Origin: an uncultured Candidatus Saccharibacteria bacterium
GTDB lineage: Bacteria > Patescibacteriota > Minisyncoccia > Phycocordibacterales > UBA9973
Reading direction: 5' to 3'
Assembly (NCBI GenBank): GCA_964469255.1
Contig: CAYYKS010000001.1
Span: 1 to 34,726, forward strand
DNA: 34,726 nt
Position 1 is the first letter of the stretch. Each line of letters opens with the position of its first letter. A program made the translations under genes and the position numbers. Shown here one piece after another: positions 13,066 through 33,501 of this stretch. The notes below the pieces were generated by a model. That model ran no database searches, was not told the DNA's origin, and saw nothing but the letters and a program-made list of their open reading frames with translations.

Positions 13066-13140
13066 ACTTATTTTAATAACTTGATTTATTACTTCTAATA
13101 TACTTTGGCCCAAAAGTCAATACCTTATTTATACCTATAT

Positions 13141-13302: not shown

Positions 13303-14118
13303 TCAGCGTGCGAAATTCTGCTGACCGTTTCTGTTCTTGTTCCCGAGAACGAAGAGAACGCTGAACTCCTTCTTCTTCGCGTTGAACCCGACGTTGACGA
13401 AGTTTTGCGCCGATGCCACGCTCGATGCGCCAACACCGGGGCCGCTCTTCGGACACGTGTTGGGGTCCTTCGTGGCGGTGCACTTCACCTTGTCACCTTC
13501 AGTGTCGACGCGAAGCTTGTCTTCTTTGAGGACAAGGTAAGTTGCGACACCAATCACCACTCCGGTAGCAATCCACGACTTGGTTCCCCAATGGAACCCG
13601 TCATCGTCGAGATTTGGCGATGCGACCCGTCGTTCTGACTGCGGAAGCACGTTCACCGTGATGATGTTCGTGTTCATGTTGGCGCCAACACCTTCGGGAA
13701 CGTTCGTGCCAGCCGCGATGCGCTCGCCTGCCTCGCGGATCGTTTCCGGATTGCGGGGCATTGTGGTACCCGTCAGCCATCCTTTGGTCACGGGGTTCTT
13801 GCAGAGGACGATCACTTGCTGCTTGCCGTTCGGTGAATTCGCGGCGATGTGGCCCGCGGGCATCACGCAAGTGTGCTCACGTCCATCGCCAGCCAGCTGA
13901 GTTATGAGCTGGGGGCTGTCCGTCTTGATGAGCGTCCAGTCGGCGGGCGGGACCCACTTAAAGGTCCTGTCCACCGGGTCGGCGCCGACGTTACAGATGG
14001 GTGCCCCACCGGTATTGATCGTCTGCTCTTCGCAGCCAATCGGGGAACTTCCGGCGAAGGCGGGTACGAAGGTTACGAGGACGAGCAGAGCGGCGAGGAC
14101 GAACTTGAGTTGGGTCAT
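13303..14118 (-). CDS. High-GC foreign gene: secreted/membrane-anchored hypothetical protein
   Basis: 271 aa. The ORF spans exactly the GC-rich block. There is a strong G/C preference at third codon positions. It has a signal peptide (LAALLVLVTFVPAFAG), one internal TM segment (WIATGVVIGVATYLVL) and scattered Cys. I recognise no family. Confidence 0.75.
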   Translation of the reverse strand: MTQLKFVLAALLVLVTFVPAFAGSSPIGCEEQTINTGGAPICNVGADPVDRTFKWVPPADWTLIKTDSPQLITQLAGDGREHTCVMPAGHIAANSPNGKQQVIVLCKNPVTKGWLTGTTMPRNPETIREAGERIAAGTNVPEGVGANMNTNIITVNVLPQSERRVASPNLDDDGFHWGTKSWIATGVVIGVATYLVLKEDKLRVDTEGDKVKCTATKDPNTCPKSGPGVGASSVASAQNFVNVGFNAKKKEFSVLFVLGNKNRNGQQNFAR

Positions 14119-14229
14119 GGTGTCTCCAGTGGGTTAATTGTGATGAGCGAATGGTGGGGAGCGTCATTGCCCCCACCACCGCAAGTCTGCGAAGTGAGAG
14201 CTGGGGCGCACGCCCTACCTCTAGGTATT

Positions 14230-14258
14230 CTTATATCACAGTATGGGCAAAAAGTCAA
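14230..14258 (-). promoter_or_regulatory. Candidate promoter of the high-GC gene
   Basis: On the minus strand: TTGACT, 17 nt, TGaTATAAG (extended -10), in AT-rich host-like DNA. This leaves a ~110-nt GC-rich leader. Confidence 0.45.
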
Positions 14259-14345
14259 GCCCATACCAAGATAAAAGAGTACGATTCTCCCACTAAGCCG
14301 TTAGTTAGGAATAGGTTATTACAAACAAAATATCACTGCGGTCGA

Positions 14346-14393
14346 CACATAAATACAAAAAGCCAGAGCAGTCTGGCTTTTTGTATTTATGTG
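14346..14393. terminator. 22-bp perfect hairpin abutting the tRNA 3' end
   Basis: cacataaatacaaaaagccaga-gcag-tctggctttttgtatttatgtg. It overlaps the last 2 nt of the tRNA and has T-tracts within both arms. Confidence 0.6.
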
Positions 14394-14463
14394 TCCCCGC
14401 GTGGAATCGAACCACGATCTCAAACTCCGCAAGCTTGAATTCTATCCGTTAAACTACGGGGAC
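14392..14463 (-). tRNA. tRNA-Arg, anticodon GCG by hand folding; CCA not encoded
   Basis: Hand-folded cloverleaf: acceptor GUCCCCG/CGGGGAC, D-arm GUUU-AACGGAUA-GAAU, anticodon arm CAAGC-UUGCGGA-GUUUG, 4-nt variable region, T-arm CGUGG-UUCGAUU-CCACG, discriminator A. Confidence 0.8.
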
Positions 14464-14512
14464 ATTATTTAATTATTTTAAAACCATAGCAATTTTTTCT
14501 ACTAAAGTAAAA

Positions 14513-14986
14513 CTAGAAACCAAGTGACTCCATGATCTTGTCGGACGGGTGCTCCTTCATCTCCTCTTCTGGAATATTTTTCGAAAGCATTATGTCTTGT
14601 ATCTCTTCTGCTATCGAAGGTATTATGGGTACAGATATGACTGGCATATAAAACCTTTCTGACTTTATGAAAAATAAATCTTTTACTGCAGAATCTTCTG
14701 GGTGAGATAATTGTATCCAATAAGACTTTATGTTTTCGTAAGGATATAACCTACTGTGTATTTTCAGCCCTTTAGAATTTAGCTCATAATTTACTAGGTC
14801 GGGTTTTTTCTTGGCAAAAAATCCAAGCAAGAACCCAGCGATAATTATAAGCGCCGCAAAAAAATAATTACTATAAATGATAGCGGCTAGAGAGCTTGTC
14901 ACTACAATAATTCCAAGAGCCCAGAACCAATCAGGGTCACGATACTTTTCTTCGTATTCGAGAGCGGTCCACTCGAGCTTTTCCAT
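14513..14986 (-). CDS. Hypothetical two-TM membrane protein
   Basis: The likely start is MEKLEWTALEYEE at 14986. Two adjacent hydrophobic helices are followed by a soluble domain. No family is recognised with confidence. Confidence 0.65.
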   Translation of the reverse strand: MEKLEWTALEYEEKYRDPDWFWALGIIVVTSSLAAIIYSNYFFAALIIIAGFLLGFFAKKKPDLVNYELNSKGLKIHSRLYPYENIKSYWIQLSHPEDSAVKDLFFIKSERFYMPVISVPIIPSIAEEIQDIMLSKNIPEEEMKEHPSDKIMESLGF

Positions 14987-15150
14987 ATGTATATTGTAAC
15001 ACCCGGTAGTAGATTTTAGCAAAGTAAATTTTAGAAAATTTACGCACTTTATGTATTATGTATTGCCAAAATTCGCTATTCGGGAACAAAGTATTTATTT
15101 ACCCCTCCAATTAGTTTATGCGTGTTATAATTGCTATTATCTAAAATTAT

Positions 15151-15819
15151 ATGTCTATATTGGTTATTGAAGATGAAAAAAAGCTTGTGGACATATTGAA
15201 GCGTGCCCTCAAAAGGGAGCGCTATTCTGTAGACGTAGCTTACGACGGAGAAGAAGGTTTAGAAAAAGCCCTTAAGGGTAACTACAGCCTAATTCTTTTA
15301 GACATAATGTTACCGAAAAAAGATGGTATTGCTGTATGCAAAGAATTGCGTGCTAGCAATGTGCATACACCCATAATCATGGTTACTGCCCGGGGTGGTA
15401 TAGAAGATATAGTGTGTGGACTCGATGCAGGAGCAGATGATTATATGATTAAGCCCATAGATATGATCGAATTGTTTGCTCGAATTCGAGCAGTACTTCG
15501 CCGTCCAAAAAATATCGAGTCCGATATTGTGAAGTTTGCGGATTTGATAATGGATAAAAAGAAGCACGAGGTTACACGAGCGGGGAAAGTAGTTACACTT
15601 ACTCCAAAAGAATATAAACTTTTAGACATACTTCTTTCCAATCAGGGGGAAGCTATGAATAGACGAAAACTTATTGATCATGCTTGGGGTCCGGATTTTA
15701 AAGAAACAAACAATGAACTCAATGTACATATTCGCTATCTTCGCACTAAAATTGATGAAGGAAAAAATAAAGCTCTAATACATACCATGCGGGGAGTTGG
15801 GTTTGTGCTAAAAGAATAA
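15151..15819 (+). CDS. OmpR/PhoB-family response regulator (no kinase adjacent)
   Basis: 222 aa. Receiver domain (ILVIEDE, LILLDIMLPKKDG, KP) plus a winged-helix output (LTPKEYKLL...RGVGF). Confidence 0.9.
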   Translation: MSILVIEDEKKLVDILKRALKRERYSVDVAYDGEEGLEKALKGNYSLILLDIMLPKKDGIAVCKELRASNVHTPIIMVTARGGIEDIVCGLDAGADDYMIKPIDMIELFARIRAVLRRPKNIESDIVKFADLIMDKKKHEVTRAGKVVTLTPKEYKLLDILLSNQGEAMNRRKLIDHAWGPDFKETNNELNVHIRYLRTKIDEGKNKALIHTMRGVGFVLKE

Positions 15820-15879
15820 ATTTAATTACTTACGGTAAAGTAGATAGCATGGGTTTTTGTTTTAGTGTAAAATCCTACT

Positions 15880-17133
15880 ATGCCTAAGGATAATCCTTTA
15901 ACTATAGTTATATTTGGAGCCACTGGTGATTTGTATGGAGACAAGCTGGCAAAAGCGCTTTTCATATTATTTAAAGAGGGGAAATTGCCGACTGATTTCA
16001 AAATTATTGCTTTTGCCCGTAGAGATTTTATTCACCATACTTTTCGTTCGCATACCAGCGAGAAAATAACTAAAAGAGATAACATTGATCATTCTAACCT
16101 CGATAAATTTTTGGAACATATAGAATATTTCAAAGGAGATTTTTTCAATCAAGCTGATTATCATAGACTCTATGATGAACTTTCTTTACAAAAAGATCGA
16201 TCAATAATATTCCATATAGCTACTCCGTATTTTGCGTACAAGGATATATTTCAGCATATAAAGGATGCACGCCTAAACCTAATGAACAAACCTCCAAAAA
16301 TTCTTATCGAGAAGCCTTTTGGAGAAAGTGAACAAGATGCTAAATCTTTACATGGCCTCCTGCATTCTATTTTTGATGAAAATAATGTTTTTCATGTAGA
16401 CCATTATTTAGCAAAAGAAAATTCTAGAGGTATTCTAGAATATCGCCATAAAGACACCGCGCTTCAGAATATTTGGAATGGTGACCATATAGAAAAAATC
16501 AAAATCGCTTTTCATGAGAGCAATTTAGTCGGTACTCGTGGGGCTTCTTATGATAAGGTTGGCGCATTTCGCGATGTGGGGGAGAATCATATGTTACAGC
16601 TTCTCGCTCTTGTGGCTATGAAAATTCCTCGGGAATTAAATCCAAATGATATTCGTCTATCTAGAACAAATGCACTTTCGGATTTATACATTGATGATCG
16701 AGGCAAGATAACTAAAGGACAATATGAAGGGTATAAATCGGAGCCTGGAGTTTCTTCGGAGTCCAATACCGAAACCTTTTTTAGAGTTTTTCTAAAATCA
16801 AAAGACCCTAATTTTTCAAATGTATCTATTGAGCTTGAGGGAGGAAAAGGGCTCATAGATATGAAATCAAGCATAACCAGCACCACGGTATCTGTATGGG
16901 TTTATTTTAAAGATGGAACTACTAAAGAATTTAAAATTCAGCCAGTGGTAGGCACAGAATACAATTCATATACTCAGGTGTATGTGGATGCAATAAGGGG
17001 GGACCAGTCTTTGTTTGTGACGATAGATGAAATTATTGTAGAATTGAAGCTGGCGAGAGAACTTTTCCTGAAATGGACAGATGTTCCTTTGATTATTTAC
17101 AATAAGGGCACGAAGCCAGAAGACATAACATAG
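15880..17133 (+). CDS. zwf: Glucose-6-phosphate dehydrogenase (short form)
   Basis: 417 aa. GATGDL nucleotide motif, EKPFG, and HVDHYLAKE (the RIDHYLGKE-type active-site motif). Confidence 0.85.
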   Translation: MPKDNPLTIVIFGATGDLYGDKLAKALFILFKEGKLPTDFKIIAFARRDFIHHTFRSHTSEKITKRDNIDHSNLDKFLEHIEYFKGDFFNQADYHRLYDELSLQKDRSIIFHIATPYFAYKDIFQHIKDARLNLMNKPPKILIEKPFGESEQDAKSLHGLLHSIFDENNVFHVDHYLAKENSRGILEYRHKDTALQNIWNGDHIEKIKIAFHESNLVGTRGASYDKVGAFRDVGENHMLQLLALVAMKIPRELNPNDIRLSRTNALSDLYIDDRGKITKGQYEGYKSEPGVSSESNTETFFRVFLKSKDPNFSNVSIELEGGKGLIDMKSSITSTTVSVWVYFKDGTTKEFKIQPVVGTEYNSYTQVYVDAIRGDQSLFVTIDEIIVELKLARELFLKWTDVPLIIYNKGTKPEDIT

Positions 17134-17146
17134 AATATAAAATAAT

Positions 17147-18079
17147 ATGAAAAAAGAACTTGGATATATCGGACTAGGTAAGATGGGTAAGAATATGGTT
17201 TTTCGGATGCTCGACCATGGATGGAAGATAGTGGCATATAACCGCACACAAGACGTAGTGAAAGAAGTGGAAAGAGAAGGTGCAGTACCGGCTACAGATT
17301 TGAAGGATTTGGTTTCTAAATTATCTACTCCTAGAACTGTATGGGTGATGGTGTCCCACTCCGCCGTAGATGAAGTTTTGAATGACTTGCTGCCACATCT
17401 CGAAAAAGGCGACACTGTAATAGATGGAGGAAATTCTCCTTACCAAGAGACCATCCGCCGTGCAAAAGAAGTAGAAGCTAAGGGGGTCAAGTTTATGGAT
17501 ATAGGAGTGTCTGGTGGGCCTGGTGGGTCACTCAATGGGGCTTGTATGATGGTGGGCGGGAACAAGGATCAATACAATGAGCTAGAAGCTGTAGGATTCT
17601 TCAAAGATACTTGTGTGGACCATGGATTCGGCTATATGGGTCCGCACGGGGCGGGACATTTTGTAAAAATGATTCACAACGGCATCGAGTATGGCATGAT
17701 GCAGTCTATAGCTGAAGGGTATGACTTGCTTCGCCACTCCAAGGAATACAATTTGGATTTGGAGCGTGTTACTGATGTGTACGCTCATGGTAGCGTCATC
17801 ACTTCCAGGTTAGTTTCCTGGTTACAGGATGGAATTAAAAAATATGGACCAGACCTCAATGATATTTCTGGGCGCGCTTCAGCTTCCGGAGAAGGAAAGT
17901 GGACAGTGGAAGCAGGCACAAGAGAGGGCATCAGTATGCCAGCTATCCAAGCAGCGCTTGATTTACGAAAAGCTTCCCAGGAAACTCCTTCTTATCAAGG
18001 AAAAGTTACATCTACTATGCGCGGAGAATTTGGTCAGCATCCAGTAAAAAGAGGGGAAGACGAACCCGAGGTGCTATAG
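17147..18079 (+). CDS. gnd: 6-phosphogluconate dehydrogenase, short (YqeC/Gnd-like) type
   Basis: 310 aa. GYIGLGKMGKNM Rossmann motif, GVSGG, GAGHFVKMIHNGIEYG. Confidence 0.85.
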   Translation: MKKELGYIGLGKMGKNMVFRMLDHGWKIVAYNRTQDVVKEVEREGAVPATDLKDLVSKLSTPRTVWVMVSHSAVDEVLNDLLPHLEKGDTVIDGGNSPYQETIRRAKEVEAKGVKFMDIGVSGGPGGSLNGACMMVGGNKDQYNELEAVGFFKDTCVDHGFGYMGPHGAGHFVKMIHNGIEYGMMQSIAEGYDLLRHSKEYNLDLERVTDVYAHGSVITSRLVSWLQDGIKKYGPDLNDISGRASASGEGKWTVEAGTREGISMPAIQAALDLRKASQETPSYQGKVTSTMRGEFGQHPVKRGEDEPEVL

Positions 18080-18090
18080 ATTTTGTAAAT

Positions 18091-18819
18091 ATGAGTAATA
18101 TCAATATTGTAAATTGCGCAGATGCTGGCGATGCAGTACTAAAAGCATCAGAAAAATTAAATTCGATTTTAAAAAATCTACACGATCAAGATGTGCCAGT
18201 ACTTCTGTGTATGTCTGGCGGATCAGCTTTAAAAATCGCAGATCAGATAGATAAAAATTATATTCCTAAAAAATTCACTCTAACAGTTTTAGATGACAGG
18301 TACAGCAAAGATGAAAAGGTAAATAATTTTTCCTTACTCATGAATACACCGTTGTACAAAGACGCACTCTCACTTGGTGCGAATTTTATCGACACCAGAA
18401 TTAAAAACGACGAAAGTATTTCTGAAATATCAGCCATAGCTGATATGGGAATAAAGAAGTGGATTGAGGGTAATCCAGATGGAAAAATAATTATTACTCA
18501 AGGTATAGGCCCAGATGGGCACACCTCAGGTATGATGCCGTATCCGGAAGACCAAGAAAAATTTGATAAACTATTTGTAGACACCGATAAATTTTCAGTG
18601 GGGTATAACAATGAAGGGAAAAATGAATACCATCTACGCATAACCTCAACAATGAAATTTTTGATAGATCATGTCGATGAGTCAGTGTTACTCATGACAG
18701 GCAAAGAAAAATCCCAAGCATTTCATAATACTTGGGACTCTTCAAAAACTTTGGCGCAAACTCCGGGTAGGGTGATTCACCAAATGAAAAAGGTGAACTT
18801 GTTTACTGATATACAGTAG
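18091..18819 (+). CDS. pgl: 6-phosphogluconolactonase / NagB-fold protein
   Basis: 242 aa. SGGS motif, GIGPDGHT[SA] motif, and a position directly after zwf-gnd. Confidence 0.7.
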   Translation: MSNINIVNCADAGDAVLKASEKLNSILKNLHDQDVPVLLCMSGGSALKIADQIDKNYIPKKFTLTVLDDRYSKDEKVNNFSLLMNTPLYKDALSLGANFIDTRIKNDESISEISAIADMGIKKWIEGNPDGKIIITQGIGPDGHTSGMMPYPEDQEKFDKLFVDTDKFSVGYNNEGKNEYHLRITSTMKFLIDHVDESVLLMTGKEKSQAFHNTWDSSKTLAQTPGRVIHQMKKVNLFTDIQ

Positions 18820-18821
18820 AC

Positions 18822-19193
18822 TTACCTCAGTTTTACGTAGTATTCTTCACTACCGTACAGAGTATAAGTACCATCAGCTTTCTTTTCTGCGTAGACTTCA
18901 AAGATATCTCCTTTGTGAGTTTCCAAATCTCCAAAACTTCCGACTCCAATAATTGAACCAACTGTTGCTTGAGTCCAGCCCATAATTACAGTGACGTGCT
19001 TTTTATCTATGACCACATAGCATTCACCGTCCGCAAAGCATCCGGTATTTACTTCTTCCAGTTTTCCTGAAAAAGTAGAGCCTGAGTTCGTATTTTCGAC
19101 TACGTTTTCTTTATTTCCTTTTTTGTATAAATATACGCCACCGACAATAAGTCCTAGAACTATTACCCAGCTTAAAATATTTTTTTTATCCAT
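18822..19193 (-). CDS. Hypothetical N-terminally anchored protein
   Basis: 123 aa. One N-terminal TM helix, no recognised domain. Confidence 0.55.
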   Translation of the reverse strand: MDKKNILSWVIVLGLIVGGVYLYKKGNKENVVENTNSGSTFSGKLEEVNTGCFADGECYVVIDKKHVTVIMGWTQATVGSIIGVGSFGDLETHKGDIFEVYAEKKADGTYTLYGSEEYYVKLR

Positions 19194-19201
19194 ATATTTA
19201 C

Positions 19202-19615
19202 TTAGACTAGATTATTTTGATTTCTGTGTGCCCACATTTCATCAGCACTCCAATACCCAGGTCCGTATGCGGCTAGGAATAGGAAGATGAAACATAGTAA
19301 TACTGCGGGTTGACCTTGGTTCATAAGGGGAACAAAAAAGTGCCCTGACGTAGCCACATGCCCTATAAAGTAAGCTACTGCCATTTGACCTGATAGCACA
19401 AAAGCAACTGGGCGAGTAAACAGTCCAAGGAGTATAGCTATACCTCCGACAAACTCTAGGATACCCGCTACTAGGATAATACCTGTAGCTTCATATCCTG
19501 CTGGCATACCACCAAACCATCCGAAGAGCTTTAATCCTCCGTTTTGTATAAAAATAATTCCCGCTACCACTCTCAACAGAAACACTGCAATTCCTACCAT
19601 TTTGTCTTTACTCAT
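19202..19615 (-). CDS. DoxX-family membrane protein
   Basis: 137 aa, four hydrophobic helices. The GGLKLFG and GLFTRP patterns are typical of DoxX. Confidence 0.8.
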   Translation of the reverse strand: MSKDKMVGIAVFLLRVVAGIIFIQNGGLKLFGWFGGMPAGYEATGIILVAGILEFVGGIAILLGLFTRPVAFVLSGQMAVAYFIGHVATSGHFFVPLMNQGQPAVLLCFIFLFLAAYGPGYWSADEMWAHRNQNNLV

Positions 19616-19663
19616 AAATTTTTTAAATTACTGATTTAATAATAAGTTTATTATAATACATAT

Positions 19664-20167
19664 ATGCATAAAAAAGTATTAGTGAATGACACGATGCAAA
19701 AAGGTTATAGTTATCTGCTTACTGAAAAAGCGGGTAAAAACTTTGATCCTAGATTTCACCCAGACCTGAGTCCAAAGGAAATGCTCGAGCTTGGAGTGTT
19801 TGGCGGTAGATATTTGAATGATTGCCAAAGAGAATTCCCTAAAGATTGGTTCAAAAAAGCCAAACTTAGTCCGGAAAAATACGATAAAGATTTAAACTTT
19901 TTTAAAATTAAAGCCAGTCAGTCACTGGCCGAGTGGCAGAAAAAAGGATGGATACATAAAGATGATCCGAGGGGATGGTTTCAATGGTACGCTCGGTACT
20001 ATATGGGGCGAAGACACAAAGATGACGAAAGGCAGATAAAGAGATGGGTAAATATGAAGCGCCACATCAGCTGGCTACAGGGCGCGTGTAGAGTTGGGGA
20101 TGTGTTTTGCCGACCTCGTCAAAGACAAGCCCTGCTCCACTGGGCCTATGATAGCAGGGGGTTATAA
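19664..20167 (+). CDS. Conserved hypothetical protein whose 3' end is duplicated at 21384
   Basis: 167 aa, soluble, Trp/Arg-rich (WFQWYARYYMGRR). It ends ...HWAYDSRGL-stop. Confidence 0.7.
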   Translation: MHKKVLVNDTMQKGYSYLLTEKAGKNFDPRFHPDLSPKEMLELGVFGGRYLNDCQREFPKDWFKKAKLSPEKYDKDLNFFKIKASQSLAEWQKKGWIHKDDPRGWFQWYARYYMGRRHKDDERQIKRWVNMKRHISWLQGACRVGDVFCRPRQRQALLHWAYDSRGL

Positions 20168-20169
20168 TT
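20137..20169 (+). repeat. Direct repeat copy 1 (functional 3' end of the 19664..20167 gene); attL-like
   Basis: ccactgggcctatgatagcagggggttataatt. The first 18 nt are identical to 21384-21401. Confidence 0.85.
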
Positions 20170-20380
20170 TTTTTACCACCTGTTTTATCTTCAAAAATTT
20201 GAATATTTTTTTTCCTAAAATATCTTTTAAAAAATGTGAAGTTTTATATTTACCTATTAACCACACAAAACCTAGTATAATCAATAAAGTAGTACCTGGA
20301 ACTGGGGTCAGCCAAAAAATTACTCCAGTAATGATAAAAAGTAAACCTAATATTTTATGAAAATTTTCTAATTTTTTCAT
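20162..20380 (-). CDS. Small two-TM membrane protein
   Basis: The likely start is MKKLENFHK at 20380. Contains LTPVPGTTLLIILG (a PGPGW-like pattern, low certainty). Its stop overlaps the stop of the convergent 19664..20167 gene. Confidence 0.5.
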   Translation of the reverse strand: MKKLENFHKILGLLFIITGVIFWLTPVPGTTLLIILGFVWLIGKYKTSHFLKDILGKKIFKFLKIKQVVKKL

Positions 20381-21176
20381 GATGTGTTTTATAATCCCAT
20401 TTGAAATTTTCTCCTCCCTCAATGCATGCCAGTAAGCGTTGAATGTGCTCACGCGGAATTCTGGTTTTAAAATAGCTTTTGGTTAAATCCTTTGGGTAAT
20501 GATCAATAGGCTCTGAAGCAATATGAAGCTCGTGCAAATTCTTTATAAAAATCTCTACAGTTTTATCAAAATTTATAGTAGTATCTGCGAAATTCCCTAC
20601 TAAAAAGTGCGGTAGGCTGTGGAATTTTGGATTTTTATTGTAGGCCATAAGCATTCCAGTGACTGTAAAAAATGTCCGGGAATCTATATGCTTAATAATT
20701 GTATCTATTCTTTCTATAGGGTATCCAGATTCTTCTTGTAAGAACTTACTAAACCAATTTGACCCCCATATCATTTTTTCTACGTGGAGAGCGTGCACCA
20801 ATTTTAGTACTGCTGAAATAATTATATAGCCCATCTTTTTCCAAACAGTCATATTTAAACATTCGTTATTTATAAATGGCTCCATGGCTAGTATAGCCTT
20901 ACATCTCTTGTCCAACTTGGCGTTGTTTATAACCAAGAAACCAAAAGAAACCCCGCCTACGATGTATTCATCGACATTTAATTCTGCAATTTTTTGATCA
21001 AAATAATTAGAAAATTTTTTAAAACTTATTTCCCCTTTTAAGGGTGGACTATTTTTGTGAAAACCAGGAAGGTCAATAAAGTGTACTGTGAAGAAATCAG
21101 CTAAAAATTCTTCCAAACCGTGAAGCAATAAACTATTTGTCGGAAACGAATGCACTAATATTAAATGTGGTTTCAT
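20355..21176 (-). CDS. Alpha/beta-fold hydrolase
   Basis: 273 aa. ILVHSFP oxyanion region and the nucleophile elbow GGVSFG (GxSxG). Confidence 0.8.
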   Translation of the reverse strand: MKPHLILVHSFPTNSLLLHGLEEFLADFFTVHFIDLPGFHKNSPPLKGEISFKKFSNYFDQKIAELNVDEYIVGGVSFGFLVINNAKLDKRCKAILAMEPFINNECLNMTVWKKMGYIIISAVLKLVHALHVEKMIWGSNWFSKFLQEESGYPIERIDTIIKHIDSRTFFTVTGMLMAYNKNPKFHSLPHFLVGNFADTTINFDKTVEIFIKNLHELHIASEPIDHYPKDLTKSYFKTRIPREHIQRLLACIEGGENFKWDYKTHHEKIRKFS

Positions 21177-21186
21177 AAATTATTTA

Positions 21187-21220
21187 CAAAAACAGTATAC
21201 CACGAGGGGGTACTGTTTTT
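21187..21220. terminator. Terminator-like hairpin flanked by A-run and T-run, just upstream of the hydrolase start
   Basis: caaaaacagtatacc-acgag-ggggtactgtttttg, an imperfect stem. It could insulate the cassette in either direction. Confidence 0.3.
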
Positions 21221-21279
21221 GTTCAAGTGGAAAGCGGTGAGATTCGCTGATATTACTGGGGGCTGTAGATTGCTTATCG

Positions 21280-21383
21280 CACCAAAATCCAGGCGGTTTT
21301 TGGGTGATTGCCACCTTTTTGTTGGATTTATGGGCTTTTTCACTGCGTTACAAACTGAGCTCGCAAGTTAAAGTTTTTCGAAC
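21280..21383 (+). repeat. GC-rich structured repeat family, copy A (short form)
   Basis: It shares these blocks, in order, with copy B: an A-tract palindrome (caccaaaatcc-aggc-ggtttttgggtg), attgcc, gatttatgg, ctgcgttacaaactg and tttcgaacc. Confidence 0.65.
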
Positions 21384-21416
21384 CCACTGGGCCTATGATA
21401 GTAGGGGACTATAGTT
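21384..21416 (+). repeat. Direct repeat copy 2: orphan relic of the 19664..20167 gene 3' end; attR-like
   Basis: cac tgg gcc tat gat agt agg gga cta tag translates to HWAYDSRGL-stop. That is identical to the real gene end, and all four nucleotide differences are synonymous. Confidence 0.85.
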
Positions 21417-21437
21417 ATCCACTTGACTTTAAATAAG

Positions 21438-21458
21438 ATACCCTATACCATAGGGTAT
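21438..21458. promoter_or_regulatory. Candidate CsoR operator (perfect 9-3-9 palindrome) overlapping a TTGACT promoter
   Basis: ATACCCTAT-acc-ATAGGGTAT ends immediately before the csoR ATG. TTGACT lies at 21423-21428. CsoR operators are TACCC...GGGTA-type palindromes (recalled). Confidence 0.55.
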
Positions 21459-21737
21459 ATGGTCAAAGAAAACATACACAAGCATGGAGAACCCAATGCT
21501 CGGGCGAAAAAAATTATCAATATGGCCGTAGGTAGTATGGCCAGGATTCCTGGTATGGTCGACGGTGGACGATATTGTCCCGAGATTATTCAACAGATAG
21601 ATAGTATCGTAGGTCTTTTGCATAGTGCACGAAAAGAATTATTGAAGGGTCACCTCGAGTCTTGTTTAGTGGAAAGACTAAAGACTGATAAAGAGGGGTC
21701 AATCAATGAGTTATTAAAAATCTACAACATGAAGTAG
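21459..21737 (+). CDS. csoR: CsoR/RcnR-family metal-sensing repressor
   Basis: I prefer the ATG at 21459 to the listed TTG at 21423. The RYCPEIIQQ...H...C pattern gives the Cys-His-Cys ligand set of copper-sensing CsoR. Confidence 0.85.
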   Translation: MVKENIHKHGEPNARAKKIINMAVGSMARIPGMVDGGRYCPEIIQQIDSIVGLLHSARKELLKGHLESCLVERLKTDKEGSINELLKIYNMK

Positions 21738-21775
21738 TTTTTTTGGTGTTTTATTAATAACTTTATATAAAAAAT

Positions 21776-22339
21776 ATGTCTAAAATTTCAACCGCATTAG
21801 CGATTTCTCTTATGATAGTCACCGGTGTTATCGGCTGGGTTGTTGGATATGCCAGCACTCCTGATTATAAAGCGAGTATGTTTGATAAAACCGCGATGGA
21901 CTTGGGTGTTGCCGATCGAAAACTAGATTTGCGTTATATTAATGCAATGATTGCTCACCACAGGGGAGCAATGCTTTTGGCTACAGAAGCTAGTATTCAA
22001 ACACAAAGAAAAGAAATGCAAGATTTATCCGCAATGATCTTGAAAGATGAGCCAAAAGCAATCGCTGAACTTTATAATTGGAAAAAAGAATGGTACGGAG
22101 ACACAAAGGAGGTGAAGGATCCAATAGTTTCTAATCTCGGAAGTTATGACGAAAAATTCGACTTACGTTTTCTTAATGCTCTCATTGCGCATCATGAAGC
22201 AGGTTTAATGATGACAAAAGAAGTAAAAACAAAATCAAGCAGAACTGAGATTTTAAACAATGCAGATGCGGTCGATACTTTTCTGACCACAACCTTAAAA
22301 CTTTTCGAGGACTGGAGAACACAATGGTATAACATTTAA
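21776..22339 (+). CDS. DUF305-family protein (membrane-anchored)
   Basis: 187 aa. Two copies of the FL..MI.HH..A..M motif ([28 protein letters not shown]). Confidence 0.85.
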
Positions 22340-22350
22340 TAAATCACCCT

Positions 22351-24621
22351 ATGACTAATAAAACATTAAAAATTAAAGGGATGCATTGTGCTAGTTGTTC
22401 AACTATTATCACCAACAAGGTTTCTAAGTTGGCGGGTATAGATGATATAAACGTTAATTTTGCCACAGAAAAAGCAACAGTTTCTTTTGATGGAAATGCT
22501 GTCTCTGTAAAACAAATGAACGATGAGATTGAAAAACTCGGGTATACATTTATTGATGAAGATGCACCTAAGGCAGGGGAAGACCACAGTATGCATACTG
22601 GAATGAACCAATCTAAAGAAGAAAAAACAAAAGAATTACTTGTCTTGCAAGACAAGACTCAGTTTGTACTACCTATTGCTCTGCTCGTATTCGCGCTTAT
22701 GATGTGGGACATAGGTGCCAAAATATTTTCTTCAATACCAAATCTGGCTTTGCCGATGTCTATTTTTAACACTGTTTCTATGATACTGGCCAGTGTTGTA
22801 TTCTTTTGGATAGGACAACCTTTTTTGCAAGGAGTAGTAAGGTTTGCTAAATACCGTGTCGCCAATATGGATACCCTGATTGGTATCGGAACCCTCGTTG
22901 CATATCTATACAGTATTATTATTACACTTTTCCCTCAAGTGAGACTTGCTTTAAGTTTACCTGAAACTACTTATTTTGATGTGACTATTGTGGTTATCGG
23001 TTTTGTGGTGTTAGGCAAATATCTCGAAGCACGATCAAAACTTCGTACTGGTGAAGCCATAGAAAAACTTCTTGGTCTGCAGGCAAAAACAGCCTTGCTG
23101 TGGCGCAATGGCTCCGAAGTAGAAGTTCCTGTAAGTGAAGTACAGATCGGAGACATACTTATTGTAAAACCAGGATCAAAAATCCCTGTCGATGGAGAAA
23201 TCGTTGAAGGGTATTCATCTATCGATGAATCCATGATCACAGGTGAATCGGTTCCTGTGGATAAAAAGATTGGTGATATTGTTGTAGGTGCAACAATAAA
23301 CAAGCAAGGTAATTTTAAATTTAAAGCTACAAAAATTGGATCTGATACAGTGCTCGCTCAGATTATAAAAATGGTTGAGGATGCCCAAGGATCAAAAGCC
23401 CCAATCCAGGCATTGGCCGATAAAATTTCTAGTGTCTTTGTACCAACAGTGTTGGTCATAGCTATCGTGACATTGATTCTGTGGCTTACGGTTGGCGCAT
23501 CAGCTATTGGTTTTTCTACCGCTCTTTCTTATGGAATTTTCTCTTTTGTTGGGGTACTTGTTATCGCATGTCCTTGTGCATTGGGTTTGGCTACTCCGAC
23601 TGCAATCATCGTCGGTGTTGGTAAGGGGGCAGAGCATGGTATTCTCATTCGAAACGCTGAAGCCTTAGAAAAACTTAGTCATGTAGATACTGTTGTTCTC
23701 GACAAGACGGGAACCATTACCAAAGGAAAACCAGAAGTGACTGATATTATTTCTTTTGGCGGAGAGTGGACAGAGAAAGACATACTTCGCATCAGTGCGA
23801 GCGTAGAAAAACTTTCTGAACATCCACTAGCAGATGCTGTTGTAGTGAAAGCTGACGAACAAAAAATACTTCTCGATAACGTTGTAAATTTTCAAGCTCT
23901 AGAAGGCGTTGGAGTGGAAGGGTTGATTGGTGCTAAAAATGTATCGATTCACAAACCACTAAAAGATGGATCAAATGCGGATAAAATAAAAGAGTTACAA
24001 GAGCAGGGCAAAACAGTTGTTGTTGTCGAAGTTGATAAAAAACAAATTGGACTTATTGCGCTCGCTGATACCTTGAAAGAAGAATCAAAAGAGGCTGTGG
24101 CTAAACTGCGAGCTAGAAATATTAAAGTGATAATGCTCACCGGGGATAATCATTTAGCGGCCAGCTATATAGCCAAACTCGCGGGTATTGATGATGTAAT
24201 CTCCGAAGTCATACCTGCAGAAAAGAGAGGTAAAATAAAAGAATTGCAAGATGGCGGGGCAACCGTAGCGATGGTTGGGGATGGAATAAACGATGCTCCA
24301 GCTCTAGTCCAAGCAGATGTCGGTATCGCCATGGGAACAGGTACTGATGTGGCTATCGAATCTGCGGGGATAACACTTCTAGGTGGTGATGTTTCAAAAA
24401 TTGCTCAAGCAATAAAATTGTCACACATAACCATGAGGGGAATAAAACAAAATCTTTTCTGGGCTTTTATATTTAATGTTGTTGGTATACCTGTGGCCGC
24501 AGGACTTTTCTATCCATTATTTGGATGGTTACTAAATCCAGCTTTTGCCGGACTGGCTATGGCATTTTCTAGTGTTTCTGTGGTATCGAATTCATTACGA
24601 ATTAAGGCAAAGAAATTATAA
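22351..24621 (+). CDS. copA: Copper-translocating P1B-type ATPase
   Basis: 756 aa. N-terminal HMA (GMHCASCS), TGES, CPC ([11 protein letters not shown]), [15 protein letters not shown]. Confidence 0.95.
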
Positions 24622-24673
24622 ATGTTAAAATAGAATACTAGAGAAAATAGGTGAAATCTTGCAAATAGAATTT

Positions 24674-25285
24674 ATGAACTTAAAACATATAAAATTATTC
24701 ATAGGCTTACTAGCACTTCTTGCTTACATTGGCATAGGGGTGTTTGGCTTGTTTCAATTGGGGCACATAAGTGAGATGCCTACGGCTAATTGCTCATATT
24801 CAGTGAATAACTTCTCGATATGTGAGAATAGTATTAGGCATATTGATCATTGGCATCAATTCTCAAATATAACACTGGCATCCCTATTTATTTTTTCGGT
24901 TTTTATGCTTGGAATAGTTTTGTATTTTTTAAGTTATCACAAGTTTTTAAACCAGAATCAATATTTTTATAGGTGGAAATATTATATTGATTACCAAAAA
25001 TCCTTAAATTATCTACATAAAATAATCACATGGTTATCACGTTTCGAGAATAGTCCTCCTGTGCATAGAGCTTTTATTATTATTTCTAATTTTAAAAAAC
25101 TATGCAAACAAAAAAAACTAAGAATAATGCAAAATATAAATTCATTGACCCAGAAATGGCAATCGATCTTGTGTGCGGAATGGAGCTCAATGCAGAGAAT
25201 ATTAAGGCAAACACAGACTACAAAGATAAAACCTACTACTTTTGCGCTATCCACTGCAAAAATCACTTTGCAGCCGATCCTGTAA
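24674..25285 (+). CDS. Hypothetical membrane protein; 3' end uncertain
   Basis: Two hydrophobic helices and Cys/His-containing loops in the first ~135 aa. The last 184 nt overlap the better-supported YHS gene in another frame, and their translation looks non-protein-like. Confidence 0.4.
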   Translation: MNLKHIKLFIGLLALLAYIGIGVFGLFQLGHISEMPTANCSYSVNNFSICENSIRHIDHWHQFSNITLASLFIFSVFMLGIVLYFLSYHKFLNQNQYFYRWKYYIDYQKSLNYLHKIITWLSRFENSPPVHRAFIIISNFKKLCKQKKLRIMQNINSLTQKWQSILCAEWSSMQRILRQTQTTKIKPTTFALSTAKITLQPIL

Positions 25286-25302
25286 AATATGTAGGAGAAT
25301 AA
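25102..25302 (+). CDS. YHS/TRASH-domain metal-binding protein
   Basis: 66 aa. DLVCGMEL...YYFCAIHCKNHFAADPVKY is the YHS pattern. Confidence 0.8.
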   Translation: MQTKKTKNNAKYKFIDPEMAIDLVCGMELNAENIKANTDYKDKTYYFCAIHCKNHFAADPVKYVGE

Positions 25303-25325
25303 ATTATTAAACTAACTATAAAAAT

Positions 25326-25955
25326 ATGAACAATAATCAAAACAATAAAATAGGATTTGGCATAGGATGGATTGCTGTTGGTCTAATTCTAGGTATGTTT
25401 ATTATTCCAATGATGCGTAGTAATTCAGTTGTTTCAAACAATATTCAAAATACAAGTTCAAAGACTGTAAATGTAGGTGGGGTTGATCAGCACTTCATAG
25501 AGCAGATGATACCTCACCACGATGGAGCTATCGCGATGGCAAACATGGCGTTTGTAAAGTCTAATCGCACAGAAGTTAAAACCCTCGCTAAAGAAATCAT
25601 AGACGCTCAAGAAAGAGAGATAAAAGATATGCAAGGTTGGTATAAAAATTGGTTTGGAAAAGATGTGAATACTCAAAATACATTTTCTATGATGAATGGC
25701 GGAGGAATGATGTCGGGAGGAGGGATGCACATGGGTGGAAAGGAAGATGTCACAGCGCTAGAAAATGCAGCGGATTTCGATAAGGCATTTATTGAGGGAA
25801 TGATTCCACATCATCAATTGGCTATTATGATGGCTCAAATGTTGAAATCTGGTACCAATAGACCCGAGATGCTTACTCTTGCTAACAATATTATTGAATC
25901 ACAGTCAGAAGAGATAACCAAAATGCAAGGTTGGTATAAGAGTTGGTATAAATAA
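25326..25955 (+). CDS. DUF305-family protein with Met/Gly-rich insert
   Basis: 209 aa. Two MIPHH motifs plus MMNGGGMMSGGGMHMGG between them, a methionine-rich stretch of the kind seen in Cu(I)-binding proteins. Confidence 0.85.
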   Translation: MNNNQNNKIGFGIGWIAVGLILGMFIIPMMRSNSVVSNNIQNTSSKTVNVGGVDQHFIEQMIPHHDGAIAMANMAFVKSNRTEVKTLAKEIIDAQEREIKDMQGWYKNWFGKDVNTQNTFSMMNGGGMMSGGGMHMGGKEDVTALENAADFDKAFIEGMIPHHQLAIMMAQMLKSGTNRPEMLTLANNIIESQSEEITKMQGWYKSWYK

Positions 25956-25963
25956 AATTATAT

Positions 25964-26497
25964 ATGAAAATCGAGCATAGATTTTTAATAGGTACGGTAT
26001 TGGTGACTGGTGTTATTGTAGTCATGTTGTCTTTGTCTAGTGAAAAAGACGAGATAAAAGAAGTGGATAGATTCAGTAAAGCCCCATTGGGAGAAAAGAT
26101 AAGTGAAATGAAATCACCACATGTGAAATTAGGGGCTTCTCATGAACCATATAATTCTAACCCTCCTACTTCGGGGCCACATACAGGTAATGATGTAGCA
26201 GGAGCAGGTATTAAAGAAAAACCTGTCGTAGATGAAATCGTTGTGCACAGTTTAGAGCATGGCGCTGTGGTCCTCTGGTACAGAGATGACTTAAAATCTG
26301 AAGATATAAATATGCTGAAAAATATCTTTAATGAAGCCTCTGGGAAAAAAATTATGATGCCACGTTCAAATATGGATACACCCATAGCGCTTACATCATG
26401 GACTTATCTTATGAAATTAGATAAGGTTGACGCTGAAAAAATAAAAGAATTTATCGAAATTAATAATGATAGAGGCCCTGAGAAAGCTTCAATATAA
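25964..26497 (+). CDS. DUF3105-like membrane-anchored protein
   Basis: 177 aa. PPTSGPH and HSLEHGAVVLWY patterns. Confidence 0.7.
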   Translation: MKIEHRFLIGTVLVTGVIVVMLSLSSEKDEIKEVDRFSKAPLGEKISEMKSPHVKLGASHEPYNSNPPTSGPHTGNDVAGAGIKEKPVVDEIVVHSLEHGAVVLWYRDDLKSEDINMLKNIFNEASGKKIMMPRSNMDTPIALTSWTYLMKLDKVDAEKIKEFIEINNDRGPEKASI

Positions 26498-26501
26498 ATA
26501 T

Positions 26502-27509
26502 ATGAATAAATACACATTTCATGTTTCGGGTACTCATTGTGCGTCGTGTAAGATCTTGATTGAAGATGTTTTAACTGAGCAAGATTTTATTAAAAATTCA
26601 AAAGTAGATTTAAATAATGAAACAGTAGAAATCGAAACTGATAGCGAACAGAGTGCGGAAGAAATTGCCACCTTGATTACCAGTAAAATAAAACCAAATG
26701 GATATGCGCTCTCAGTTGAGAGAATGGCGGAAGTTAGAGAGGGTGATGACGTTATTTGGAAAGCTATACCCCTTGGACTTTTATTCTTGGCCTTATTTTT
26801 TGTATTGCAAAAATCTGGGATTTTAAATCTAGGTATCGGTGGTAATACTACTCCAACCACAAGTTTTGTTATTGGGCTCATAGCTTCGGTTTCTTCATGT
26901 CTCGCTATAGTCGGGGGATTGGTTTTGTCGCTCTCTGCAAAAATATCAGAAGACAATACGAGCGATACTAAAACTTTTTTACTTTTTCACATTGGCCGGT
27001 TGGTTAGCTTTGCGGTACTCGGAGGGGTGCTGGGAGTGATAGGTAATGTTGTTGGAATTAATTTTACTTTCACCGCGATGCTCGGGATTATAGCATCCTT
27101 GGTGATGCTCATACTTGGTTTAAATTTGGTTGGAGTATTTGCTAACAATAAACTTACTTTAAACTCAGGAGTTTTTAATTTTTTTAGAAGAATAGAGCAC
27201 AAGACCTTTACTCCACTTATCATTGGTTTTGGAACATTTTTCCTGCCTTGTGGCTTTACTCAGTCTATGCAAGTTTCGGCTATTTCTAGTGGTTCATTTG
27301 TGTCTGGAATGCTCATCATGTTTGCTTTTGCTTTAGGTACATTGCCCATGCTCGCCCTGCTTTCATTTGGGTCAGCATCTTTTGCTCAAAGTAAATATGC
27401 ACCTTTGTTCTTTAAATCTGCGGGGGTTGTGGTTATAGGTCTAGGTATATTTGCACTACTTTCAGGGCTCGCGGGGCTCGGTATTATAAATCCCTTATTT
27501 AGTATTTAA
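26502..27509 (+). CDS. HMA-domain fused to a multi-pass TauE/SafE- or DsbD-like membrane domain
   Basis: I prefer the ATG at 26502 (the previous gene stops at 26497). N-terminal GTHCASCK HMA domain, then about 6 TM helices with a conserved PCG. Confidence 0.8.
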   Translation: MNKYTFHVSGTHCASCKILIEDVLTEQDFIKNSKVDLNNETVEIETDSEQSAEEIATLITSKIKPNGYALSVERMAEVREGDDVIWKAIPLGLLFLALFFVLQKSGILNLGIGGNTTPTTSFVIGLIASVSSCLAIVGGLVLSLSAKISEDNTSDTKTFLLFHIGRLVSFAVLGGVLGVIGNVVGINFTFTAMLGIIASLVMLILGLNLVGVFANNKLTLNSGVFNFFRRIEHKTFTPLIIGFGTFFLPCGFTQSMQVSAISSGSFVSGMLIMFAFALGTLPMLALLSFGSASFAQSKYAPLFFKSAGVVVIGLGIFALLSGLAGLGIINPLFSI

Positions 27510-27536
27510 TTTGGTATAATTCGAATATAAAATTGT

Positions 27537-27923
27537 ATGAATAAAACAGTTTCAATTATTATAACTCTCAGTCTTATCCTTGCCGTAGGGATTATTTTTT
27601 CAGACTCAGGAACGAAAGGCACAGATCAAGCTGTGCAAAATAGTGTCATAAAAGATGGGGTACAATACATTACAATCGAGGCTAAGGGGGGATATTCACC
27701 ACAGACTAGTAATGCCAAAGCTGGAATTCCAACAAAACTAATCGTAAAAACAAGCGGGACGTATGACTGCTCGGCTTCTTTGGTTATCAAATCAATTGGT
27801 TTTCAAAAAATATTATCTCAGAACGGAGAAGAAATAATTGACCTAGGTACTCCAAAGGCAGGGGATAAATTCCAAGGAGTGTGCGGAATGGGTATGTATA
27901 GTTTTATAGTTAACTTTAGTTAA
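27537..27923 (+). CDS. Small secreted cupredoxin-like protein
   Basis: 128 aa. Signal anchor, beta-rich, C...C.MGM-type ending (GVCGMGMY). It is the last gene of the metal island. Confidence 0.55.
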   Translation: MNKTVSIIITLSLILAVGIIFSDSGTKGTDQAVQNSVIKDGVQYITIEAKGGYSPQTSNAKAGIPTKLIVKTSGTYDCSASLVIKSIGFQKILSQNGEEIIDLGTPKAGDKFQGVCGMGMYSFIVNFS

Positions 27924-27968
27924 AGAATAGACGCCCTTGGTTTCTATTCTTATGGCCGTAGAGTACCT

Positions 27969-28198
27969 ATTCCATCAAAACCAAGGCGGTTTTGATGGAA
28001 TTGCCTAGTTTTACTAGATTTATGGCTGCGTTACAAACTGCGGAAGCGGTGACCTGCCTACCGGCAGGCAGGGATTCGCCGATACTGCGGCGGGTGCTTT
28101 TCCATCTCACTACGTTCGCAGGGAAAAGCCTTTCGAACCTCACACGCGAGCAAAGCAGTTTGCTCGCTCGCTCCGCAGTTTTTCACTGCGTTTTAAAC
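27969..28198 (+). repeat. GC-rich structured repeat family, copy B (long form), contiguous with the left 191-bp inverted repeat
   Basis: It opens with a perfect 14-5-14 palindrome, attccatcaaaacc-aaggc-ggttttgatggaat (27969-28001). Next come attgcc, gatttatgg, ctgcgttacaaactgcgg, several perfect 6-9 bp hairpins, tttcgaacc, and a second ctgcgttttaaactgcgg. Confidence 0.65.
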
Positions 28199-28389
28199 TG
28201 CGGTGTATCTTGGACAAAGTTCGAAATTACTTCGAGCTAAATCCAAACGATTAAATTACTAAAAATGGACTCGGCAGGGCGAAACAATATTTTTGGGGAT
28301 ATGGGTTCGCCCTGCCTCGGCTAAATGTTTTTGAAATTCGGCGAGATTCAGAACTCTGCCCGCAGGAGGGGTTTGGGGAGGAATGCGGG
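28199..28389 (+). repeat. Left copy of a perfect 191-bp inverted repeat
   Basis: Checked base by base in 10-nt blocks: the reverse complement of 28199-28389 equals 33311-33501 with no mismatch. Confidence 0.95.
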
Positions 28390-31994: not shown

Positions 31995-32001
31995 AAAAGT
32001 T

Positions 32002-33310: not shown

Positions 33311-33501
33311 CCCGCATTCCTCCCCAAACCCCTCCTGCGGGCAGAGTTCTGAATCTCGCCGAATTTCAAAAACATTTAGCCGAGGCAGGGCGAACCCATA
33401 TCCCCAAAAATATTGTTTCGCCCTGCCGAGTCCATTTTTAGTAATTTAATCGTTTGGATTTAGCTCGAAGTAATTTCGAACTTTGTCCAAGATACACCGC
33501 A
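33311..33501 (-). repeat. Right copy of the perfect 191-bp inverted repeat
   Basis: Exact reverse complement of 28199-28389. Confidence 0.95.

Follow-up and report, generated by a model that had tools for sequence, protein, structure and literature searches.

The window analysed here, the whole stretch of 34,726 nucleotides of contig CAYYKS010000001.1, contains the end of a conserved gene twice, and the question arises how this duplication came about. The gene, called gene X in the following (19664-20167, plus strand), encodes a conserved protein of 167 amino acids and forms the left anchor of a variable region; a 1.25-kb segment with genes for a small membrane protein and an alpha/beta hydrolase separates its own end from an orphan copy of that end. 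A first interpretation made without database searches (the sequence-only reading) took this arrangement for the footprint of site-specific integration of a discrete cassette into the 3' end of gene X. We found that the repeat is a true recombination scar, that an empty site exists in relatives, and that the orphan corresponds to the gene end at this empty site; the insert itself, however, looks like a composite, a recombination patchwork at an island hotspot, and not like a self-contained mobile cassette. We give a probability of about one half to the reading that the repeat is the scar of a single old illegitimate recombination event at the left margin of this hotspot.

The direct repeat comprises 33 nt (20137-20169 and 21384-21416), of which 29 are identical in both copies; the copies lie 1247 nt apart, measured from start to start. 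The gene-attached copy C1 (CCACTGGGCCTATGATAGCAGGGGGTTATAATT, plus strand) consists of the last nine codons and the stop codon of gene X and ends with agc agg ggg tta taa. The orphan copy C2 (CCACTGGGCCTATGATAGTAGGGGACTATAGTT, plus strand) ends with agt agg gga cta tag and runs into the promoter of csoR. The first 18 nt are identical, and this core was matched only twice in the window when up to three mismatches were permitted, as compared to no match in 100 shuffled sequences. All four differences (agc/agt, ggg/gga, tta/cta, and taa/tag) are translation-neutral, and both copies are read in frame as HWAYDSRGL-stop; they look like the divergence of two functional gene ends. The description of the repeat given by the sequence-only reading, including its synonymous changes, was thus correct. 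Nor does the orphan terminate a longer, degraded paralogue: a tblastn search with gene X over positions 20168-21500 returned these nine residues alone.

The segment between the copies carries two genes on the minus strand, which encode a small membrane protein of 72 amino acids (TM, 20162-20380; an open reading frame that forms a homologous pair with the hydrolase gene in the contigs L104 and L105 described below) and an alpha/beta hydrolase of 273 amino acids (20355-21176; Pfam PF00561, E = 1.4e-8). Neither a recombinase nor a relic of one was found between the repeats, in agreement with the claim that the segment lacks such a gene. As had also been noted, the stop codon of the TM gene is embedded in the tail of gene X: a TTATAA palindrome holds the last codon and stop codon of both genes, and the TM stop codon is the reverse complement of the last leucine codon of gene X. 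The sequence-only reading had listed the membrane protein, the hydrolase, and one repeat unit (unit A) as the contents of the insert. These are present, but the list was incomplete; the 207 nt of non-coding DNA also contain a fragment of the 3' end of a tRNA-Ser gene and a terminator hairpin.

The anatomy of this non-coding part was read directly from the window. It begins with the terminator-like hairpin T (21188-21220, minus strand; folding energy -19.1 kcal/mol, z = -5.0), which in two relatives, L011 and L098, is located immediately downstream of a complete tRNA-Ser(UGA) gene. It is followed by R' (21228-21246, minus strand), in which the final 19 nt of tRNA-Ser(UGA) recur at a displaced site with 16 of the 19 positions identical. 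Comparison by blastn showed that window positions 21180-21246 are 85% identical to L011 2009-2074 and 82% identical to L098 3637-3702, each comprising the terminator and the tRNA 3' end. Furthermore, R' together with the next ~20 nt, the start of a unit designated U, matched the R-U junction of L011 with a score of 44, which was reached by none of 2000 shuffles. Next comes arm A2 (21261-21357, plus strand), which is 92% identical to L098 1063-1187 and homologous to arm B1 (27954-28040); the arm-type sequence reads ...CTGCGTTACAAACTG, then the tRNA-Ser 3' end. The last segment, X (21360-21384, plus strand), is the 3' part of the U unit (compare 28115-28139); it ends with ttcgaacc, and the orphan comes next.

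Unit A (21261-21384) can be aligned over its full length with unit B (27954-28139, plus strand), a paralogue which consists of arm B1, the tRNA fragment R'', and U up to X, except for an internal gap of 72 nt that corresponds to the tRNA fragment of B. In this alignment, 85 of 114 positions are identical (~75%). Unit A ends in the middle of the U unit, precisely where the orphan begins. The junction of X and C2 reads ttcgaacc/cactggg, as compared to ttcgaacc/tcacac in B and ctgctcc/actggg in gene X, with a microhomology of 1-2 nt. Unrelated sequences are joined here by a microhomology of a few nucleotides, beside a gene X anchor that shows tracts of exchange; judged by its sequence, the junction appears to be illegitimate. 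What lies to the left of the orphan is a truncated patchwork from the attachment (att) region close to the tRNA gene, not a recognisable element terminus. The insert is regarded as composite because it combines the hydrolase-TM pair, a tRNA-Ser 3' end with its terminator (T-R'), and a truncated copy of an arm-R-U unit (A).

No Rfam match at E ≤ 1, no gene predicted by ARAGORN, and no convincing covariation were obtained for 21177-21416, which was searched for a structured RNA or a tRNA. Two candidates for further gene-end copies were rejected. A degenerate third copy at 21243-21265 was equalled by 726 of 2000 shuffles, and this stretch is the R'-U junction (0 of 2000); a decayed copy in front of arm B1 was equalled by about 1800 of 2000. 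Additionally, the loop of hairpin T (21196-21212), located just upstream of the hydrolase start, reads tataccacgagggggta, and the homologous hairpins of L011 and L098 have another loop. It resembles a CsoR-type operator (TACCC-N-GGGGGTA) and may confer copper-dependent control on the hydrolase gene, or the likeness may be due to chance.

Contigs were fetched for the closest homologues of gene X and for further relatives, and they are given L-numbers here. In L001-L006, where gene X is 96% identical to that of the window, DoxX and gene X are followed by csoR at a distance of 20 nt, and the gene end is present in a single copy. This empty site, gene end and then csoR, is the one which the sequence-only reading had predicted, and it was observed directly. 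The gene end reads ...agt agg gga tta tag ttatccacttgac... and differs by one base from the orphan with its right flank of the window. Because of this match, the orphan is the copy that is continuous with csoR. Filled loci like that of the window were found in L007-L009 and L102; L007, L008, and L102 span both repeat copies, and L009 as well as L010, a contig that ends inside the insert, contain C1 and the left part of the insert. The insert and its right flank are 100% identical throughout the filled loci, all of which are alike, and they gave no evidence for independent insertions in other backgrounds or with other flanks. L011, L100, and L103 carry other genes after gene X and the tail ...SRKL that is typical of the family. 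A duplicated gene end was seen in none of 91 other gene-X loci.

A third, mini form was found in L098, whose DNA identity to the window is 86% over DoxX and gene X; on the side of tRNA-Ser, RuvX, and PilM, L098 is about 74% identical to L001. Here, gene X has a tail of the C1 type (agc agg ggg tta tag) and is followed by 114 nt corresponding to unit A (92%), by the orphan (cccattgggcctatgatagcagggga...), and by the last 70 nt of a cupredoxin gene. The gene X tail leads directly into the arm, and neither a TM gene nor a hydrolase gene is present in this locus. A direct comparison revealed that the junction of A and the orphan is the same in L098 and in the window. Because it is shared with such a divergent relative, the junction would have arisen once, before the lineages split or exchanged the region. 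Furthermore, L098 must once have held the copper island after the orphan. A block of ~1.09 kb, made up of TM, hydrolase, T, R', and the start of U, distinguishes the window from L098; its ends are the gene X stop codon and the left edge of the arm, and it is flanked by GGGGGTTATA and GGGGGCTGTA and not by the 33-nt repeat. Thus, the variable part is not bounded by the repeat, since in L098 the repeat and the junction bracket only the arm of 114 nt.

Homologues of the hydrolase gene were sought in other lineages as well. The closest ones outside the lineage (75-83%) are located in unrelated contexts, next to ClpP/CPSase, UvrB/UvrA, or LepA/PemK, and have no TM gene beside them; hydrolase genes as ancestral neighbours of gene X were not found in other lineages. 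The hydrolase-TM unit is kept as a pair in L104 (3755-4895) and L105 (220-1360), which belong to another Paceibacterota lineage. The DNA identity is 76% and extends exactly over window positions 20162-21185; the limits of this span are the TTATAA shared with gene X and the start of the terminator module, 9 nt in front of the hydrolase ATG. In both contigs the pair is located 34 nt downstream of a tRNA-Ser(CGA) gene on the same strand, with no terminator between them, and the sequence available shows no direct repeats of the tRNA-Ser(CGA) end around the pair. In the window, the pair stands directly downstream of the tRNA-Ser(UGA) relic and its terminator. It fits a resident downstream flank from which the tRNA gene was later parted by elements inserting at the tRNA 3' end, because the pair ends exactly at the gene X stop codon and at the tRNA terminator and adjoins tRNA-Ser in L104 and L105.

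To the right of gene X, a tRNA-Ser(UGA) gene is located on the minus strand just in front of DUF5652/RuvX in L001, L011, L098, L099, and L018, and it is complete in the first four of these. In L019, a tRNA-Ser gene (called with anticodon ACT) abuts the gene X stop codon directly. The gap between gene X and the tRNA gene contains the copper-resistance (cop) island in L001, a SOUL gene in L011, genes for a sortase and an ice-binding protein in L098, and DUF305 with two other genes in L099; in the window it contains the hydrolase pair, the cop island, and more. The gap between the convergent gene X and tRNA-Ser is a hypervariable island hotspot. Copies of the 19-nt tRNA 3' end occur as direct repeats at positions 21228 and 28040 of the window, 10679 of L001, 1893 of L011, and 3521 of L098, in these three relatives about 160 nt from the full gene. 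The region thus shows what defines an array of tRNA-targeted islands, namely an entire tRNA gene on one side and direct repeats that consist of partial copies of its 3' end.

The cop island begins on the left with a csoR promoter-like site (TTGACT-17-TACCAT), a palindromic operator (21438-21458), and csoR (together 21423-21737, plus strand), so that C2 is followed by a CsoR-family repressor, DUF305, CopA, and further copper genes. At its right edge stands unit B, which is 100% identical to L001 10563-10839. The tRNA-Ser fragment R'' in unit B (28040-28078) is interrupted by a palindromic insertion of ~20 nt (cctgcctaccggcaggcagg, 28053-28072), and L001 has the same insertion. The middle of the island (21741-26492) is strongly diverged from L001 and has two DUF305 genes, an open reading frame of 208 amino acids, and DUF3105 as extras; its right end (HMA/DsbD_2, cupredoxin) is 98.3% identical to L001. 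These observations point to a replacement of the island interior through homologous exchange.

Mosaicism was observed directly by comparison of the haplotypes. L001 is 98.7% identical to the window over 13319-18813 and 98.3% over 26492-28203, and identity amounts to 94% in DoxX and gene X, 91% in orphan and csoR, and 70-75% in copA; several genes of the window are absent from L001. Of 31 differences between L007 and the window, 30 are confined to 19484-19927. L102 differs at 69 positions, all within 19418-20134 and none over 20135-21456, and the 3' part of its gene X is closest to the type of L011 and L103. L011 is 100% identical to the window over 19674-19973 and 66-92% identical elsewhere across the stretch. 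From these tracts of identity in L001, L007, L102, and L011, gene X is seen to be a mosaic of exchanged segments. Where haplotypes carry different sequences downstream, their homology ends at the 18-nt core. Presence or absence of the insert can therefore be explained by homologous replacement without an att system, given that the empty haplotype is 9% diverged in csoR and that gene X is mosaic.

Gene X has more than 8000 homologues, but no match was obtained against Pfam, NCBIfam, PHROG, or PDB. Homologues with 62-78% identity occur in metagenome-assembled genomes labelled Patescibacteria, Proteobacteria, Acidobacteriota, Planctomycetes, and even archaea, and the C-terminus LLHWAYDSRKL is nearly invariant. 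The high identity across phyla and the mosaicism at strain level suggest that gene X is exchanged horizontally often. Tails ending in ...SRGL, as in C1 and C2, are rare and tied to loci in which the cop island or the arm is, or once was, present; ...SRKL has been kept by other close relatives. A scan of genome contigs for gene X yielded only relatives with at most 78% identity and no close empty or filled site.

The final arrangement of the window is gene X with C1, then TM, hydrolase, T, R', U', and A, and finally C2 with the cop island and B. Its history, of which we infer the direction and the order of events, may have been as follows. The hydrolase-TM pair would first have resided between gene X and tRNA-Ser. 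Elements integrating at the tRNA 3' end would then have displaced the pair and left R' behind. The csoR/copA island could have arrived from a genome of the L001 type together with the last 31 nt of gene X, its former neighbour, and would have been joined to the middle of the U unit via the microhomology of 1-2 nt, either after the island had been excised aberrantly and re-integrated at the att region of the tRNA gene or by homology-facilitated illegitimate recombination. C1 would accordingly be the resident gene end, and the orphan C2 a hitchhiker. Later homologous exchange in gene X and deletions between short repeats, for which the 18-nt core and GGGGGTTATA/GGGGGCTGTA are candidates, may have produced the empty (L001), mini (L098), and full (window) forms. 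The empty form of L001 could be the donor-type arrangement, which was retained or brought back through homologous replacement; alternatively, it could result from a deletion between the two repeat copies.

That the cop island with the orphan was the incoming or rearranged piece is a proposition to which we likewise assign even odds. It is favoured because T-R' and A are tRNA-proximal sequences and yet are cut off from the tRNA gene by the island, because the paralogous units A and B border the island on both sides, because the hydrolase pair fits exactly between the gene X stop codon and the tRNA terminator and adjoins tRNA-Ser elsewhere, and because the join of A and C2 is, by its sequence, probably illegitimate.

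Several points weigh against this reading. Insertion of the hydrolase pair, insertion of the cop island, or an unequal exchange would lead to the same end product, so the direction cannot be proved. The proposed ancestral order, in which TM, hydrolase, and terminator lie between gene X and an intact tRNA-Ser gene and the orphan is missing, was not encountered in any genome. Outside support for a hydrolase gene beside tRNA-Ser comes from one other lineage, and there from a different isoacceptor (CGA). An identical core of 18 nt, a tail with synonymous changes only, and a precise empty site are exactly the products of site-specific integration, too, and the arm beside the orphan, being homologous to the arm at the tRNA att copy, could be an integrase-binding arm. 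Finally, L001 and the window are nearly identical for about 150 nt to the left and to the right of the indel, which would fit a fairly recent precise excision or insertion.

Integration of a cassette remains the strongest competitor, although we consider it unlikely. It would explain the insert as a recombinase-less element similar to cis-mobilisable elements (CIMEs), mobilised in trans, with an attP composed of the arm, the 18-nt core, and the replacement gene end. Such a cassette would have entered a chromosome of the L001 type by site-specific integration at the gene X 3' end, and L098 would represent a mini version with an internal deletion. The direct repeat with its identical core and synonymous tail changes speaks for this explanation, as do the precise empty site in relatives with a 98.7% identical backbone, the match between the orphan and the empty-site tail, and the homology of the orphan-side arm with the arm next to the tRNA-Ser att copies. 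CIMEs with attL and attR but without an integrase are a described class (PMC5704250). However, neither an integrase nor a relic lies between the repeats, and the sole recombinase of the window is of the serine type, 12 kb away and at another junction. The filled loci share one identical insert and right flank instead of showing independent insertions; the tRNA-Ser att relic and the truncated end of the U unit look like chromosomal patchwork and not like an element terminus. The block in which window and L098 differ is not bounded by the repeat, and the csoR of the empty haplotype is 9% diverged, so that the empty site need not reflect a recent excision or insertion.

Searches for a recurrence of the supposed attP-like unit (copy A with the 18-nt core), as the sequence-only reading had proposed, gave no support either: none of the 91 other gene-X loci contains it, IMG/VR yielded nothing for the core pattern, and the single match in JGI metagenomes is attributed to chance. 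In the same public collections, the R-U junction pattern gave no match, and the Y-box pattern gave only chance matches of 16-20 nt in IMG/VR. Measured against CIMEs, the locus has gene-end direct repeats with the end restored and an unoccupied single-copy site; in the loci examined, we found neither an integrase or related element nor independent insertions, and the boundaries do not coincide with the repeats in all variants.

A narrower version of the same idea concerns the module of 145 nt (gene-X tail, arm, and X) that stands alone in L098. It might be a minimal recombinase-less integrative module that has the 3' end of a conserved, nearly universal gene as its attB, takes up cargo such as the hydrolase-TM pair, and is moved in trans by an integrase akin to those targeting tRNA-Ser; we judge this to be quite doubtful. 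If it were true, it would amount to a cis-mobilisable cassette system in Patescibacteria, whose integrative elements are poorly known.

Rather improbable, too, is a tandem duplication, in which the series of gene end, cop island, and arm-R-U would have been doubled by an unequal, illegitimate exchange that joined the start of the gene X tail with the middle of a U unit. The first copy would then have decayed: deletion would have left only the arm in L098, and hydrolase-TM-T-R' would have taken its place in the window lineage. Units A and B are indeed paralogous, have direct orientation, and flank the orphan with the cop island; moreover, the arm of L098 starts exactly at the TAG of gene X, as expected from a deletion of the first cop copy at a TAG/GTAG microhomology. 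However, A and B are only ~75% identical, as compared to 92% for A between window and L098, and the duplication would have to be far older than the split of these lineages, or one copy would have to be replaced. T-R' and the hydrolase pair inside the first copy are left unexplained as well. A chance similarity or an assembly artefact as the source of the repeat is next to impossible, with no match expected from shuffled sequences and the repeat structure found in four or more independent assemblies, to which L098 adds a variant of it.

The right edge of the region shows a further rearrangement. The last 4 nt of the tRNA-Ser 3' end are located at 28200-28203 (minus strand); here the synteny with L001 breaks off and a further element begins, which cuts the tRNA-Ser gene at position 28203. 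A perfect inverted repeat of 191 nt (28199-28389 and 33311-33501) surrounds a block of 4.9 kb, and its left arm begins exactly at the synteny break inside the tRNA-Ser 3' end. The block contains a gene for a P-type cation ATPase (29490-32009, minus strand), an open reading frame of 294 amino acids without a family match, and a LOOT RNA (RF03000; 33120-33242, minus strand; 87 bits). The arrangement may represent an invertible segment or mark the ends of an element, or it may have been created during assembly. Just beyond the second inverted repeat, a gene for a large serine recombinase (33783-34726, plus strand; Resolvase, Recombinase, and Zn_ribbon_recom domains) runs off the end of the window. 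This only recombinase of the window presumably belongs to the element which interrupts tRNA-Ser in this strain and not to the 1.25-kb segment. Direct repeats of 19 nt are more typical of tyrosine integrases; no such integrase was found in any locus examined.

Two observations were made to the left of gene X. An open reading frame of 123 amino acids without a family match (18822-19193), located between a 6-phosphogluconolactonase-like gene and DoxX, is present in the window and L007-L009 and absent from L001-L006. Another one of 906 amino acids (10393-13113, minus strand) contains diverged internal direct repeats of 60-74 nt with 65-72% identity at 11152-12546 and probably encodes a repeat-domain surface protein.

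The locus is a well-resolved case of a small-genome bacterium of the candidate phyla radiation (Candidatus Paceibacterota) shuffling accessory genes at one hotspot. The genes concerned are those for copper resistance, the hydrolase, SOUL, and sortase with ice-binding protein, and the means would be tRNA-targeted integration, illegitimate joins, and homologous exchange. It also calls for caution: even where a gene end is duplicated with synonymous differences and the empty site matches, this is not sufficient to call a site-specific cassette.

Among known systems, genomic islands may stand in tandem at the 3' ends of tRNA or tmRNA genes, as is the case for the ssrA-specific islands of Dehalococcoides (PMC3146451). 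A conserved RNA gene serves as anchor there, too, and the content varies among close relatives; likewise, short direct repeats of the 3' end (here the 19-nt copies R', R'', and R) separate islands and decayed mini-islands. The locus differs in that the 33-nt repeat represents a protein-coding gene end and is located at the hotspot margin opposite to the tRNA gene, and in that no tyrosine integrase was found in the loci examined. From this comparison, the tRNA-Ser side appears to behave like a classical tRNA/tmRNA-anchored island array.

For CIMEs and site-specific accretion, PMC5704250 (citing Pavlovic 2004 and Bellanger 2011) describes the ICESt1/ICESt3 family in the 3' end of fda. Common features are a segment free of recombination genes between direct repeats that contain a gene 3' end, the restoration of this end, and the tandem position with another island. 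In contrast, our locus lacks both a cognate integrase and decayed mobility genes, was not found to recur, and has variable-part boundaries that do not lie at the repeat. By this comparison, the gene X side resembles, in form, the scars of integration into gene 3' ends and the accretion of CIMEs.

The acquisition of flanking host DNA by aberrant excision is well known from specialised transduction by lambda gal and bio phages. The island similarly bears a short piece of the gene which would have flanked its former location; unlike in lambda, no phage or excisionase was identified here. Homology-facilitated illegitimate recombination in natural transformation was reportedly described by de Vries and Wackernagel in 2002. 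The locus shares with it a single anchor of homology, either gene X (left) or tRNA-Ser/RuvX (right), combined with a junction at a microhomology of 1-2 nt, and mosaic tracts that stop at the boundary of homology; the difference is that the process would here be deduced from sequence alone. The term itself is used in PMC8116780 and PMC6382021. Taken together, the locus is best filed as a scar of illegitimate or homology-facilitated recombination in an island hotspot, that is, as a product of known processes in a little-studied phylum.

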